Virus genome (UHGV): UHGV-0160150
DNA length: 29,487 bases
Reading direction: 5' to 3' (one strand)
DNA from: a virus
In this document: positions 467-7,277 of the stretch, piece after piece
Numbering within the stretch: position 1 is the first letter of the stretch
Layout of the letters: every line of letters begins with the position of its first letter
Notes under the pieces: model-generated
The model's input: the letters and a program-made list of their open reading frames with translations, nothing else
Databases searched by the model: none
Told to the model about the DNA's origin: nothing
Position numbers and translations under genes: made by a program

Positions 467-1065
467 TGGTTGCCTCCTTTTCGAAGCTGGGCGGCGATAT
501 CTTCGAGAACGCCATCAGAGAATGAGCGGTCAAAATCGCCTTCCGGCGCATTAGCCATAAACTCAGTAGAGGTAAGAATCATCCGGGCAATATCCGCGGC
601 GTTCTTCGCAGTATCATCAATAAAACCAGCTTCCCAGGCAGCCAGCATTCTGTTCGCCACAAAGTAAGCGCCCTCCTTGCGTGCTTCAGTCTTCACTTCA
701 GCCAGGAAAGCATCGGTGGCTGGTGTTTGCGGCATCCCTCCATCTGTTGCGCAGATATACGCATCAGATATTTCATCCTGCTCGCCATCAAACACGTAGC
801 AACTCTGTGCGATAAATTTATTCAGCCCAGCATTCTCCGCTGCCAGTGCTGAAAACTTCTCGTGTGCCAACTTAACAGCAGAATCAGCCTGCTTAATTGA
901 CTCAATCGCTTTCTGTTGGTCTTCGGACAGAGCTGAAATCTTGGCCTCCGCTTCAGTAAATTTGCGTACCAGATATTCAGCATTTGTTTCGTTAACCTTT
1001 AAATCACATGGGATGCATTTACCTTTCAGAAAACCATCCATCTCAATTAGTGACATTTGTTTCAT
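463..1065 (-). CDS. Hypothetical phage early protein (~200 aa)
   Basis: Long minus-strand ORF (track 463..1083). ATG at 1065 (MKQMSL) has GGAG upstream and overlaps the stop of the preceding small ORF (ATGA); the track start at 1083 is GTG. No motif recognised. Confidence 0.55.
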
Positions 1066-2829: not shown

Positions 2830-3030
2830 TCAGAATGGTAATTCGGATGGGCAGGAAAGAAATTCGCGCTCATTCATGCGCTCTCTTTGCGCCTGCCATA
2901 AACAAAGTTGTTTCTTTGATTTATCTCCCGCTTTACGCCAGTAACGAGCCTCAGCAATGTGATACTCTCTTTTTAATCGACTTAACTCTGGAGTTTTCGC
3001 CAGTTCTACCGGAATCATTTTGACCTCCAT
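2830..3030 (-). CDS. Small hypothetical protein (62-66 aa) in the gam-equivalent slot
   Basis: ORF between kil and Sak4. Two candidate starts (MEVKM... or MIPVE... with GGAGGT RBS). No motif recognised. Confidence 0.4.
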   Translation of the reverse strand: MEVKMIPVELAKTPELSRLKREYHIAEARYWRKAGDKSKKQLCLWQAQRERMNEREFLSCPSELPF

Positions 3031-3128
3031 TTTCTGTAGGCTTCTACGGCTTCACGAAACATCTTTTCATCGCCAATAAAAGTGGCGATAGTGAATTTAG
3101 TCTGGATAGCCATAAGTGTTTTATCCAT
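3015..3128 (-). CDS. kil: Kil-like small protein (host cell-division inhibitor)
   Basis: 37-aa frame MDKTLMAIQTKFTIATFIGDEKMFREAVEAYRKWRSK. ATG at 3128 sits in ATGGATAA, overlapping the cIII stop. Resembles lambda Kil from memory and lies directly downstream of cIII. Confidence 0.45.
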   Translation of the reverse strand: MDKTLMAIQTKFTIATFIGDEKMFREAVEAYRKWRSK

Positions 3129-3261
3129 TTTTGGGAACTCCTGGCTGATTAAGTATGTCGATAAGGCGTTTCCATCCATCACGTAATTTACGTGTGATTC
3201 GTTCAAGTAAAGATTCGGAAGGGCAGCCAGCAACAGGCCACCCTGCAATGGCATATTGCAT
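3121..3261 (-). CDS. cIII: CIII-like protein (FtsH protease inhibitor, stabilises CII)
   Basis: 46 aa MQYAIAGWPVAGCPSESLLERITRKLRDGWKRLIDILNQPGVPKNG, matching lambda CIII as I recall it. Strong RBS AAGGAG 6 nt before ATG at 3261. Confidence 0.65.
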   Translation of the reverse strand: MQYAIAGWPVAGCPSESLLERITRKLRDGWKRLIDILNQPGVPKNG

Positions 3262-3287
3262 GGTGTGCTCCTTATTTATACATAACG

Positions 3288-3310
3288 AAAAACGCCTCGA
3301 GTGAAGCGTT
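3288..3310 (-). terminator. Putative intrinsic terminator (minus strand), upstream of cIII
   Basis: Minus-strand hairpin AACGC...GCGTT followed by a TTTCGTT tract. Confidence 0.35.
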
Positions 3311-3321
3311 ATTGGTATGCA

Positions 3322-3348
3322 TATAAAAAGGCCCTCACACTGGAGGGC
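3322..3348 (-). terminator. Putative intrinsic terminator (minus strand), tL1-like position between ral and cIII
   Basis: Minus-strand hairpin GCCCTC-CAGTGT-GAGGGC followed by CTTTTTA. Confidence 0.5.
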
Positions 3349-3410
3349 AAAGAAGATTTCCAATAATCAGAACAAGTCGGCTCCTGTTTAGTTACGAGCG
3401 ACATTGCTCC

Positions 3411-3438
3411 GTGTATTCACTCGTTGGAATGAATACAC
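3411..3438. repeat. Perfect 9-bp inverted repeat GTGTATTCA / TGAATACAC with 10-nt loop
   Basis: Read directly; lies in the noncoding gap between ral-like and cIII. Confidence 0.6.
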
Positions 3439-3484
3439 AGTGCAGTGTTTATTCTGTTGTTTATGCCAAAAATAAAGGCCACCA

Positions 3485-3685
3485 TCAGGCAGCCTTGTTA
3501 TTCTGTTTACCAAGTTCTCTGGCAATCATTGCCGTCGTTCGTATTGCCCATTTATCGACATATTTCCCATCTTCCATTACAGGAAACATTTCTTCAGGCT
3601 TAACCATGCATTCCGATTGCAGCTTGCATCCATTGCATCGTTTGAATTGCCCACACCATTGATTTTTATCAATAGTCGTAGTCAT
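3485..3685 (-). CDS. ral: Small Cys-rich protein, Ral-like (restriction alleviation) candidate
   Basis: 66 aa MTTTIDKNQWCGQFKRCNGCKLQSEC... with four Cys in CX5CX2CX5C spacing. Size, position (between N side and cIII) and my recollection of lambda Ral fit; unverified. Confidence 0.45.
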   Translation of the reverse strand: MTTTIDKNQWCGQFKRCNGCKLQSECMVKPEEMFPVMEDGKYVDKWAIRTTAMIARELGKQNNKAA

Positions 3686-4301: not shown

Positions 4302-4571
4302 TTACCTCGCCGTCAGTTGTTTTGATTTCCGGTAGCCTGCCGCGTAAATAGCTACGTTTGGCAGGCAAATACTTCCACTGCATTCATCTGCCTTCTTGCA
4401 GCGAAGGCTTCCGAGTGATGCTGCTTTATCTGCTCTGACGCAACCAGAGAGCTTTAGCGCAATTTTTCGTGCCAATCGCTGTTCTTGCATTGCCTGTTCA
4501 CGTTGAGCCTGTCTGCGTGCTCTGCGGCGATTTCTGGCGTTATCATCAGCCAGATAAGTAACGATTATCAT
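4302..4571 (-). CDS. N: N-like transcription antiterminator (arginine-rich motif)
   Basis: 89 aa from ATG at 4571 (GGAGG RBS, 5-nt spacer). N-terminal ARM DDNARNRRRARRQAQREQ resembles lambda N's QTRRRERRAEKQAQW. First gene downstream of pL/nutL; matching nut sites are present on both operons. Confidence 0.65.
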   Translation of the reverse strand: MIIVTYLADDNARNRRRARRQAQREQAMQEQRLARKIALKLSGCVRADKAASLGSLRCKKADECSGSICLPNVAIYAAGYRKSKQLTAR

Positions 4572-5001
4572 GTTGACCTCCGATGATTGGCTTTGGTGAT
4601 TAGGTGGACGGTACTGATCTCCGGCTTGGTTAGTGCTTCGCCTGGTCATTATCACGCCTAGTGACCCCCTGAGGATCGTCTCCTCGCCAGTGCAGGTCAT
4701 ATCGCATCAGTCTGCGCATTCACCCAATCCCAAAGCCAACTACTCTTTGACTCACACTCTCGCAGTGAGCGCGCTCATGCCATTGAGTCTCTGCCGCTTC
4801 ATCGCCGCTGATAACCGGTGCGCGTCTGGCATTCGCGCTGCTTTACCGGAGCTACTTTTAATATATTGACCCTAACCCGATGCTAAGCAGGCTCGCTCAA
4901 TGGCGACTCAGGGCAGCATCATTACTGCTGCATTGCCTTTCGGCTGCGGTCTAACCGCGTTAGTGCACCATTACGGCACCTCCTGTTTGGTTAAACTCAG
5001 T

Positions 5002-5042
5002 TCCCGCATTTCGGCGGGACAATCCCATCAATGTTAAAGAGC
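5002..5042 (-). promoter_or_regulatory. nutL candidate (boxA-like GCTCTTTAACA plus boxB hairpin)
   Basis: Minus-strand transcript reads GCTCTTTAACA, a 12-nt spacer, then TCCCGCCGAAATGCGGGA; the same boxA and boxB occur on the plus strand after cro. Confidence 0.55.
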
Positions 5043-5084
5043 CTGCCAATCTGTTCCGTTTGGCTTCCAGCGTCCTGCTGATGG

Positions 5085-5175
5085 CTTAAAGATAACTTAG
5101 GTTATAGGTGTGGTCAATAACCTAATTTATATTTTATGGTAAATAAGTTATAAGTGATGGATAACAAAGGTATTT
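5085..5175 (-). promoter_or_regulatory. oL/pL: leftward early promoter with ATAAC-N4-GTTAT operators
   Basis: Perfect operator ATAACTTAGGTTAT at 5092-5105; imperfect copies at 5117-5130 and 5161-5174. Minus-strand -35 TTGACC (5112-5117), 17-bp spacer, -10 TATCTT (5089-5094). Confidence 0.5.
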
Positions 5176-5304
5176 TATTTTTGTAAATGTTGCTGATTGA
5201 TTGGTGTTTGAGGGCTTACGTGCGGGGTGAAGGTGTTACCTTTGGCTTGATGCTTGTCTATGATGAGGATGGTTGATTGGGTGGTGAACGGCAGGAAAAG
5301 AAAA

Positions 5305-5330
5305 CCCGGCGCTGAGGCCGGGTGTTTTTA
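5305..5330 (-). terminator. Intrinsic terminator ending the cI operon
   Basis: Hairpin CCCGGC-GCTGAG-GCCGGG with T-rich tracts on both sides (possibly bidirectional), immediately 3' of the 98-aa gene stop. Confidence 0.6.
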
Positions 5331-5624
5331 GTCTTTTCTTTTGCTTAGCATTTCGTCGATTTCTAAGTCAATACGATATTGATCTATTGCTTTTCTCTCG
5401 TTTGGGGTTGGTATTTTATACTGTTCAATTAGATCTGTTGTGTATTTTATTTCATCTAATGTGATTTTTATATCAGAGAGAATCTCTTTTATATCAATTA
5501 GATGCTCTTCTTCTTTTGCGCGATTAGAGCTATGTTCAATCATTTGAGATAGCTTTTTGCTAATGCTTAGCAAAACAAAAAGAATGATGACCAAAACAAC
5601 AACAAAAACTATCAGAAATTCCAT
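5328..5624 (-). CDS. Small membrane-anchored coiled-coil protein (98 aa) in the rexAB-equivalent slot; function unknown
   Basis: N-terminal hydrophobic helix (FLIVFVVVLVIILFVLLSI) followed by a charged, heptad-like region. GGAGGG RBS; 40 bp downstream of cI on the same strand. Markedly AT-rich. Followed at once by the terminator. Confidence 0.6.
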   Translation of the reverse strand: MEFLIVFVVVLVIILFVLLSISKKLSQMIEHSSNRAKEEEHLIDIKEILSDIKITLDEIKYTTDLIEQYKIPTPNERKAIDQYRIDLEIDEMLSKRKD

Positions 5625-5664
5625 TATCCCTCCGCACTTCCGTAAGTCTTCTTCTGATTATCGG

Positions 5665-6372
5665 TTACCAACTATGAGACGACCAGAATACTCTGCCAAT
5701 AATCCTTACGGTTTCATGAAATTCATCTCTATCCATTACTTCATCCGGGTACTCTTCGCGATTTATTGATCTGATTATCACCGATGTAGGGGTGGCGATT
5801 AATGTTTTTACTCGTAACAAATCAGACTGGCAAATAGCGTAGGTTTTACCATCTCTGATTGTGGTATCTTGCGTGTTAACACCAACAACATCGCCATCGT
5901 GAAGCGTTGGTTCCATGCTTTGCCCTACAACCCTAACTAGCTTGGCTGATCTTTCTGATACTCCCATCTTTTTCAGATAGTGCTTTCTGAAAACCAAAGA
6001 GAACTCCGATGATTCCTCTAGCTCGCAGCTACCGCTTCCAGCTGAAAGCGAAACGTTAAGAAGAGGCAACGCAACAAACTCGTCATCGTTTCTTTTAATG
6101 TCTTCCCATACCACAGCTTTTAAAGATGACTCACGGACATTGGATGGTTCTTCATGTGCACCATCCCTCATTTCACCAATACCAGAACTAAGCCATTCAG
6201 GACGCACTTTTAAAGCATTGGCTAATTCAACCATCTTGCGAGATCCGTTTGTTTTACCGGACGACATCTTCTGTATGGCTGGCTGAGATATTCCAACCAT
6301 GTCAGCAAGCTGTGATTGTGATACCCCTGCTGAGCTCATGGCTGCATTTAGTCTTTCTGCGAATGTTTTCAT
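5665..6372 (-). CDS. cI: CI-type prophage repressor (HTH plus LexA/S24-like autocleavage domain)
   Basis: 235 aa from ATG at 6372 (MKTFAERL); the track start at 6402 is TTG. HTH SQSQLADMVGISQPAIQKM; C-terminal S24-like region (GQSMEP serine context, conserved Lys). Apparently leaderless: pRM -10 TAGATT lies 7 nt upstream. Divergent from cro. Confidence 0.85.
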   Translation of the reverse strand: MKTFAERLNAAMSSAGVSQSQLADMVGISQPAIQKMSSGKTNGSRKMVELANALKVRPEWLSSGIGEMRDGAHEEPSNVRESSLKAVVWEDIKRNDDEFVALPLLNVSLSAGSGSCELEESSEFSLVFRKHYLKKMGVSERSAKLVRVVGQSMEPTLHDGDVVGVNTQDTTIRDGKTYAICQSDLLRVKTLIATPTSVIIRSINREEYPDEVMDRDEFHETVRIIGRVFWSSHSW

Positions 6373-6379
6373 ACTCACA

Positions 6380-6450
6380 AATCTATAACTACGGTTATCC
6401 AAAGTAAAATAACAAAGGTTATTGCTATTTTTTATAACTTGAGTTATCTT
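6380..6450. promoter_or_regulatory. oR with divergent pRM and pR; three perfect 14-bp operators ATAAC-N4-GTTAT
   Basis: Operators at 6385-6398, 6409-6422 and 6434-6447. pRM (minus): -10 TAGATT (6380-6385), -35 TTACTT (6402-6407). pR (plus): -35 TTGCTA (6422-6427), 17-bp spacer, -10 TATCTT (6445-6450), the same -10 as pL. Confidence 0.6.
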
Positions 6451-6483
6451 TGGTTATAAGTAATGACCACAAGAGGTATGCTC

Positions 6484-6708
6484 ATGAATTTAGTAATTCA
6501 ACGAGCCTTGAAAATTGTCGGTAGCCAAAAGCGCCTTGCCGACAAGTGTGGTGTAACGCAGCCAGCAGTACACAAATGGCTGAAAGGCGGGTTGGTCTCT
6601 CCAGAGAAAGTTACCGCCATCGTTAACGCCACTGGAGGGCAGATCAAGGCTTACGAAATTCGCCCCGATTTGCCACACCTGTTTCCAAAACCGAATCAGG
6701 CAGCATAA
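6484..6708 (+). CDS. cro: Cro-like HTH regulator
   Basis: 74 aa from ATG at 6484 (AAGAGG RBS); HTH QKRLADKCGVTQPAVHKW. First gene of the rightward operon, divergent from cI. Confidence 0.7.
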   Translation: MNLVIQRALKIVGSQKRLADKCGVTQPAVHKWLKGGLVSPEKVTAIVNATGGQIKAYEIRPDLPHLFPKPNQAA

Positions 6709-6716
6709 GTAACACC

Positions 6717-6760
6717 GCTCTTTAACAGTCATGGTCCTCATTCCCGCCGAAATGCGGGAA
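6717..6760 (+). promoter_or_regulatory. nutR candidate (boxA-like CGCTCTTTAACA plus boxB hairpin TTCCCGC-CGAAAT-GCGGGAA)
   Basis: Same boxA and boxB as the minus-strand nutL site; located between cro and cII as in lambda. Confidence 0.55.
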
Positions 6761-6817
6761 TACAACGCGCATCAGTTGGTGCGCATAACTTCTTATTTGT
6801 TAAGGAAATACTTACAT

Positions 6818-7096
6818 ATGCAACTTACAAGTACTCGCAAGAAAGCGAATGCAATTACAAGCAACATCCTAAATCGAATTGCTGTACGTGGTCAGCGAAA
6901 GGTTGCTGATGCATTAGGGATCAATGAATCGCAAATTTCGCGATGGAAAGACAGCTTTATCCCAAAGATGGCCATGCTTCTGGCTGTGCTGGAGTGGGGT
7001 GTTGAAGACGAGGAATTAGCGGAGCTGGCAAAGAAAGTAGCCATGGTGCTGACAAAAGAAAAGCCTCAAGACTGCGGCAACAGTTTTGAGGCCTGA
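6818..7096 (+). CDS. cII: CII-like transcriptional activator
   Basis: 92 aa from ATG at 6818 (AAGGA RBS). Conserved ...[29 protein letters not shown]... matches lambda CII's SQISRWK...[10 protein letters not shown]. Confidence 0.8.
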
Positions 7097-7130
7097 TGTA
7101 GAAAGACTGGATCAATCCACAGGAGTCATT

Positions 7131-7277
7131 ATGACAAAACAACTCAGTCCTTACCAGGACAAAATTCACAAACACATACTACGTGATCGCTTCCTGTCCA
7201 GCTTCAAGCAGCCTGGTCGATTCCGGGCTGAGTTGGAAAAAGTGAAGCTGATGCAGAAGGAGAAAGGTCATGAGTAA
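7131..7277 (+). CDS. Small hypothetical protein (48 aa) between cII and O
   Basis: ATG at 7131 preceded by AGGAG (6 nt); the stop overlaps the O start region. Confidence 0.4.

Follow-up and report, generated by a model that had tools for sequence, protein, structure and literature searches.

Putative nutL and nutR sites of the HK620 type, with identical boxB hairpins, in a P22-like phage genome

Do two boxA-like words, each followed by one and the same hairpin and lying on either side of an immunity region, represent the nutL and nutR sites of an N-type antitermination system, and does this system have a specificity of its own? In phage lambda, the arginine-rich motif (ARM) of N binds the GNRA-like pentaloop of boxB, and NusB and NusE bind boxA. 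The locus was found in a stretch of 29,487 nucleotides, UHGV virus genome UHGV-0160150, which was analysed over its whole length and is called the window below. The window is a P22-like (Lederbergvirus-type) E. coli phage genome with HK620, CUS-3, Sf6 and Sf101 as relatives; the paper cited for HK620 is that of Clark et al. 2001 (J Mol Biol 311:657). The two candidate sites are as follows.

5002-5042, minus strand: nutL, with boxA GCTCTTTAACA at 5042-5032, a 12-nt spacer at 5031-5020 and boxB at 5019-5002
6717-6759, plus strand: nutR, with boxA at 6717-6727, a 14-nt spacer at 6728-6741 and boxB at 6742-6759

The boxB of both sites is the same 18-nt sequence, TCCCGCCGAAATGCGGGA, i.e. TCCCGC-CGAAAT-GCGGGA, and is preceded on its 5' side by an rrn-like boxA (consensus CGCTCTT(T)A); the spacers are TTGATGGGATTG in nutL and GTCATGGTCCTCAT in nutR. 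A search of the 29.5-kb window with the pattern GCTCTTTAACA-N(8-20)-TCCCGCCGAAATGCGGGA returned exactly two matches, the nutL and nutR spans listed above. The full pattern was matched in none of 100 dinucleotide-preserving shuffles and none is expected by chance. In the same window, the 18-nt boxB with up to three mismatches was detected at these two places only (0.04 expected), and the 11-nt boxA with at most one mismatch at the two nut sites only. The boxB was predicted to fold as a 6-bp stem with a CGAAAU loop (-9.9 kcal/mol and z = -3.2 for nutL, -10.7 kcal/mol and z = -3.0 for nutR), and the nutR stem is extendable to 7 bp by the pair U6741-A6760. The loop is probably a GAAA tetraloop closed by a C-U mismatch, a GNRA-like fold being assumed. 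The sequence-only reading had reported this combination of boxA and boxB on the minus strand at 5002-5042 and on the plus strand from 6717 onward, and the exact pattern search confirmed it. Its spacer length of 12-13 nt is right for nutL and has to be corrected to 14 nt for nutR. Of the nutR extent that it gave, 6717-6760, the start stands but the pattern ends at 6759, base 6760 merely lengthening the stem.

The position of the sites was then considered with respect to the following features of the early region.

3216-3274, minus strand: cIII RNA thermometer (lambda cIII thermoregulator, Rfam RF01804, 88.5 bits)
3310-3291 and 3348-3331, minus strand: two terminator-like hairpins downstream of N and upstream of cIII (terminator scan)
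3475-3496, minus strand: terminator-like hairpin (terminator scan)
4302-4571, minus strand: N gene, 89 aa, first gene of the pL operon (Pfam, PHROG, identity with HK620)
5089-5117, minus strand: predicted pL, TTGACC-17-TATCTT, with the operator TATAACCTAAGTTATC between the hexamers (consensus scan and regular expression)
5665-6372, minus strand: cI repressor, HTH and S24 peptidase (Pfam)
6422-6450, plus strand: predicted pR, TTGCTA-17-TATCTT, with the operator TATAACTTGAGTTATC between the hexamers, located between cI and cro
6484-6708, plus strand: cro, forming with cI an immunity module that is not HK620-like
6767-6784, plus strand: hairpin GCGCATC-AGTT-GGTGCGC followed by a U-rich stretch, in the position of tR1 between nutR and cII
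6818-7096, plus strand: cII (Phage_CII, E = 7e-45)

The predicted pL and pR share the same build, with a TATAAC-N4-GTTATC operator between the hexamers in each. The boxA of nutL starts about 40 nt (about +41) into the predicted pL transcript and that of nutR 9 nt past the cro stop codon (6706-6708), in agreement with the earlier placement of the sites just past the pL start and just after cro. Both sites are in the sense orientation of the early transcripts, one per early operon, and flank the immunity region. The region 6709-6830, which includes the hairpin at 6767-6784 (plus strand), folds with z = -3.7; this hairpin may act as the tR1 terminator, a function suggested by its pattern match, and the HK620 record (AF335538) annotates tR1 directly after nutR. 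The hairpins at 3291-3348 (minus strand) correspond to tL2B and tL2A of HK620, the window aligning from 3001 to 3454 with the HK620 locus 155-608 where these two terminators are annotated. All the tR1 and tL candidates are hairpin pattern matches, and Rho-dependent termination is not predictable by sequence.

Several side observations were made in this region. When Rfam was applied at its gathering threshold, the cIII thermometer was the sole match in the whole window. The cIII ORF (3121-3261, minus strand) encodes 46 aa, a length equal to that of the HK620 cIII CDS, which is described in the HK620 record as shortened by an internal stop codon. Between cI and OL/pL lies a 98-aa ORF with an N-terminal membrane helix (5328-5624, minus strand), which matches PHROG 18389 (unknown function) and no Pfam family and occupies the position of rexAB in Hafnia phage yong1; it is followed by a two-way terminator hairpin (5304-5323) at the position of HK620 tIMM. 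In the predicted fold of the nutR-tR1 segment (6717-6810, plus strand; z = -3.7), a stretch overlapping the cII Shine-Dalgarno sequence, UUGUUAAGGA (about 6797-6806), is paired with boxA (about 6719-6728), so that boxB and the hairpin at 6767-6784 are enclosed between the two strands of this helix. We take this fold to resemble the alternative NUT RNA structures described for H-19B.

The 89-aa product was assigned to the N family by its match to Pfam N_peptide PF25694 (E = 2.2e-15, 57.4 bits for a cut-off of 27.9) and to PHROG 271, "anti-termination protein N-like" (E = 2.5e-33). Its ARM, DDNARNRRRARRQAQREQAMQ, is visible at about residues 9-30. The 89-aa N-like protein with an arginine-rich motif that had been proposed from the letters was thus matched in both family databases. 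The ORF is intact and a GGAGG Shine-Dalgarno sequence lies 5 nt upstream of its ATG. The comparison of N with solved structures gave merely spurious low-complexity matches to RNF168.

The nut sites were compared with those of HK620, whose GenBank entry (AF335538) carries the features "nutL; putative N-utilization leftward" and "nutR; putative N-utilization rightward". From boxA through the spacer to boxB, the HK620 nutL and nutR are base for base the same as those of the window, its N is 94% identical to the 89-aa protein, and the gene order N - nutL - pL ... pR - cro - nutR - cII is the same. The homology covers N and the nutL-pL segment (5000-5182) and resumes at nutR-cII (6708-7277), whereas the cI-cro core of the window (about 5183-6707) is of another type than that of HK620 and has its best match, with 99% identity, in the Stx1a-converting phage Stx1a_10051. 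As read from these alignments, the pattern is classical mosaicism, the immunity module being swapped between the two putative nut sites. A further difference concerns the nutL-N gap, which is about 108 nt in HK620 and 430 nt in the window, a 250-nt structured insert included. The boxB TCCCGCCGAAATGCGGGA at both nut sites and the ARM NARNRRRARRQAQ are present in the window as in HK620, mEpX2 and CUS-3, and the sites are assigned, by sequence identity, to the HK620-type class of the lambdoid N/nut family. The candidate sites are already known ones, annotated in HK620 since 2001, and because identical sites are annotated there the observation is correct but ordinary.

By analogy with the lambda system, the following scheme is proposed. 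After derepression, RNA polymerase starting from pL and pR would transcribe each nut site. NusB/NusE would be recruited by the boxA RNA GCUCUUUAACA, which matches the core of the E. coli rrn boxA exactly, and the boxB hairpin would serve as the binding site for the arginine-rich N-terminal region of N, the 89-aa product of the gene that comes first on the pL transcript. The rest of N, its middle and C-terminal parts, would lock onto the elongation complex together with NusA and NusG and render it termination-resistant. The modified polymerase would then continue through tR1 into cII and the replication genes and, on the other side, through the tL terminators in the direction of cIII and kil. 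In this scheme the RNA binding, the use of Nus factors and the terminator read-through are inferred from the biology of lambda, P22 and phage 21. The proposal of N-type antitermination is supported by the operon position and orientation of the sites, the rrn-like boxA, the identical boxBs, the N-family gene and the identity with HK620, and 5002-5042 and 6717-6759 are very probably functional nutL and nutR sites for the N of the window.

The relation between the ARM and boxB was examined in other phages. One and the same N terminus with the ARM YLADDNARNRRRARRQAQREQAMQ is found in the N proteins of the window, HK620, mEpX2 and CUS-3, and all four phages have the same boxB at both nut sites, yet the C-terminal halves of N diverge despite this common pair, being P22-like in mEpX2 and phage-21-like in CUS-3. 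A scan of IMG/VR with the full nut pattern found at least 120 stretches and, among the matches listed, 85 loci with a divergent nutL/nutR pair. In these 85 loci the two sites are about 1100, 1650, 1950, 2200, 2800 or 2900 bp apart and, since there are at least six such distances, several immunity modules are involved. Among the matches listed, 96 nutL sites had at least 700 nt downstream, and in 92 of these 96, which were selected for carrying the exact boxB, N[AS]RNRRRARR is encoded within 1.1 kb downstream. The ARM and boxB are thus inherited together across mosaic N proteins and immunity types, and these comparative data support a cognate pair.

The converse situation is encountered in phage 21, where boxA and its left flank GGCAGGCTCTTTAACAT are identical to those of the window and the middle segment of N, LARKIALKLSGCVRADKAASLGSLRCKKA, is nearly identical, but the ARM differs (GTAKSRYKARRAELIAERR) and so do the boxBs (TCTCAACCTAACCGTTGAGA in nutL and CACCTCTAACCGGGTGAG in nutR), which have a larger, CUAACC-type loop. 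The N proteins of Stx phages (H-19B / 933W-type) are 92-95% identical to the window N over the C-terminal 24 residues or so (CLPNVAIYAAGYRKSKQLTAR), and P22-type gp24 is 55-59% identical over residues 46-89, whereas the N-terminal ARMs of P22 gp24 and Stx-phage N are unlike that of the window; their boxB targets presumably differ as well. A paper on phage L places the specificity of gp24 in its N-terminal part, with C termini exchangeable between P22 and L. Two further loci were noted. The phage mEp213 (JQ182733) has two N genes in its pL operon: a lambda-type N, accompanied by a lambda-type nutL and nutR, and an HK620-type N located behind a decayed boxB (GCCCTCCGAAATGCGGGA), without boxA, and behind a copy of the structured insert of the window. 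The latter gene looks like an orphan gained by recombination. In Hafnia phage yong1, the N homologue has a third ARM, MNAKQRCKLRRLERRSEERN, and a candidate nutL (about 2930-2964, minus strand) consists of boxA AGCTCTTTAAA and the hairpin GTATGCC-GAGA-GGTGTAC, directly followed by a copy of the same insert; its N/boxB may be another specificity class.

With lambda, the window shares the architecture of the N-nut system and the gene positions, the RRRxRR core of the ARM and a boxB loop that contains GAAA. The differences lie in the stem and the closing pair of boxB (GCCCU-GAAAA/GAAGA-AGGGC in lambda versus UCCCGC-CGAAAU-GCGGGA, with its C-U closing pair, in the window), in the loop length (6 nt in the window versus 5 in lambda and P22), in boxA (CGCTCTTA in lambda versus the rrn-like GCTCTTTAACA) and in N itself, which has 107 aa in lambda versus 89 aa, with unrelated middle and C-terminal parts. 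The sequence comparison thus bears out the earlier statement that the boxB stem and loop are unlike those of lambda. An N-boxB specificity distinct from that of lambda, which had been suggested on this basis, is plausible and, as we infer from the comparative support, likely. Literature searches for the ARM and boxB strings and for HK620 nut found no binding, reporter or read-through experiment on the HK620-type N/boxB class.

Three other explanations were weighed against this reading. The repeated hairpins could be no targets of N at all but terminators, RNase III sites or chance inverted repeats beside boxA-like words, as a GC-rich hairpin taken by itself carries little weight and the nut regions, when folded over a longer span, are no better than shuffles (z = -0.25 and -0.9). 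This is most improbable given that the whole 41-43-nt pattern was absent from all 100 shuffles, that a U tract is absent after either boxB hairpin and that the same divergent boxA-boxB pair recurs, with the same ARM and different immunity modules, in 85 viral contigs among the matches listed. A stronger case can be made for genuine nut sites whose N and boxB form no separate class and cross-react with lambda. The window ARM, A-R-N-RRR-A-RR-QAQ, is close to A-Q-T-RRR-E-RR-AEKQAQ of lambda through the common RRRxRR core, G-A-A-A is found both in the lambda loops GAAAA/GAAGA and in CGAAAU, and the title of a cited paper announces that the P22 and lambda boxB requirements overlap. Cross-reaction nevertheless seems unlikely. 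Stem sequence, closing pair and loop length are all unlike lambda, Trp18 of lambda N has no counterpart in the window N, and the HK620-type ARM lies downstream of 92 of the 96 IMG/VR nutL sites chosen, among the matches listed, for their exact boxB. The coexistence in mEp213 of a lambda-type N with a lambda-type nut pair and an HK620-type N with a decayed boxB is also what would be expected if the two systems were not interchangeable.

It could finally be argued that the system is a relic in the prophage of the window, the 250-nt insert disturbing nutL function or N expression and impairing antitermination: the insert begins only 2 nt past the boxB stem and is carried by just 6 of the 96 IMG/VR nutL sites among the matches listed. 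Such a decay is very unlikely, since nutL is undamaged in boxA, spacer and boxB, the N ORF is intact and preceded by a good Shine-Dalgarno sequence, and the order nutL-element-N is also encountered in Stx2_EH1904, Stx2_5044 and Hafnia phage yong1, the last of which is listed with its host, Hafnia paralvei. A functional nutL/nutR pair of the HK620 type is the reading retained here, and the insert was characterized within it as follows.

4750-4999, minus strand: 250-nt block between the nutL boxB and the N leader, absent from HK620 and Stx1a_10051 (junction mapping)
4984-4979, minus strand: Shine-Dalgarno sequence AGGAGG upstream of a minigene
4971-4960, minus strand: minigene ATG GTG CAC TAA (AGGAGG-N7-ATG, whole span 4984-4960)
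about 4958-4751, minus strand: structured RNA core of about 210 nt

In HK620, GCGGGAAC is directly joined to CAAAGAGTAG, and the 250 extra nucleotides of the window (4999 down to 4750) are found exactly at this junction. Homologues of the core, encountered in many enterobacterial phages, are 69-99% identical, never annotated and always co-oriented with the flanking genes. Most copies have a strong Shine-Dalgarno sequence and a start codon followed by 0-3 more sense codons, the stop codon lying 1-2 nt ahead of the first hairpin. A 19-mer of the core was detected in at least 120 IMG/VR stretches, which gave 93 distinct 240-nt variants; the element is present in 16 phage records and the core in 117 of 5426 complete E. 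coli genomes. The element precedes N in Stx2_EH1904, Hafnia phage yong1 and mEp213. In Klebsiella RothC it has Q upstream and tRNAs and the lysis genes downstream, in Escherichia phage 733R5 it is found among the late genes, between those for lysis and those for terminase, and Edwardsiella EPP-1 and Providencia PSTCR7lys carry it in their early-left regions. Among the matches listed, the gene upstream encodes, among others, a Q protein of one of two unrelated families (10 and 4 cases), a CI repressor (9 cases) or an Rz spanin (9 cases), and N is located downstream in 13 cases.

The evidence for a structure comes from covariation. RNAalifold applied to 8 diverse copies predicted 53 pairs, 14 of them with compensatory changes. 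This structure was projected onto a sequence-based alignment of 96 distinct copies, in which the pairs were counted: 88.5% of the cells pair, versus 29-37% after sliding of the partners, double changes occur in 20 pairs, and covariation scores 0.125 versus 0.02-0.05. None of 500 shuffles reached any of the observed pairing or covariation values. RNAalifold run directly on the 96-sequence MAFFT alignment gave 26 pairs only, because the central variable domain is misaligned there. The single-sequence fold of the element is no more stable than that of shuffles (z = -0.9) and the structural support is therefore drawn from covariation only. Its many G-U alternatives assign the RNA to the transcript-sense strand. 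The core is predicted to contain about 11 supported helices, joined by highly conserved junction sequences (CCAGACGCGCACCGGUUA and CUCAAGGGCAUGAGCG).

Other identities of the element were tried and set aside. A helix between the minigene and the 3' part was dropped, 49% of its cells being paired. Coding potential was rejected, as the core lengths are evenly distributed modulo 3 (30/33/33) and no sense frame is open; on the antisense strand, one frame is open over at least 60 aa in 42% of the sequences only. ARAGORN rejected a tRNA or tmRNA. The 16-mer matches in genome contigs come from unrelated taxa of many phyla and were taken as chance. Rfam gave no relevant match at E <= 10 in the window segment 4300-5300, which comprises nutL, the N leader and the element, and no match to the element at E <= 0.1 in 7 loci with other copies, including both longer variants of the central domain. 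A literature search for its conserved strings found no paper. In one contig where the element follows a Q gene, the sRNA STnc100 (Rfam RF02076, 95 bits) was detected at 567-761 (minus strand), about 130 nt downstream, the two non-coding RNAs standing in tandem in a late-operon leader.

These results point to the element as a probable new structured RNA family. We would go further only tentatively, with the odds slightly against us: the element may be an undescribed family of structured phage RNAs that act in cis or are set free from antiterminated operons, out of their leaders or intercistronic regions. This idea follows from the variety of places behind which it is found, namely nutL, two unrelated Q families, cI and Rz. 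It might serve as a sensor, as a processing or stabilising element, or as a decoy.

Little is at stake in the finding itself, a correct annotation of the signals for early antitermination in a P22-like prophage, since these signals are known. The HK620-type N/boxB class to which they are assigned is common, being present in at least 120 IMG/VR stretches and in many E. coli and Stx prophages. Its ARM and its boxB, the GAAA loop of which would be closed by C-U, might form an orthogonal RNA-peptide pair and, if distinct from the ARM-hairpin pairs of lambda and P22, could serve as another orthogonal RNA-tethering tool. The inserted RNA element is the part of the locus that deserves a further look. 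The window shows that a structured RNA, large and conserved, can be accommodated in an N leader immediately after boxB and, if functional, this element would be a new testable feature of lambdoid early and late transcripts.
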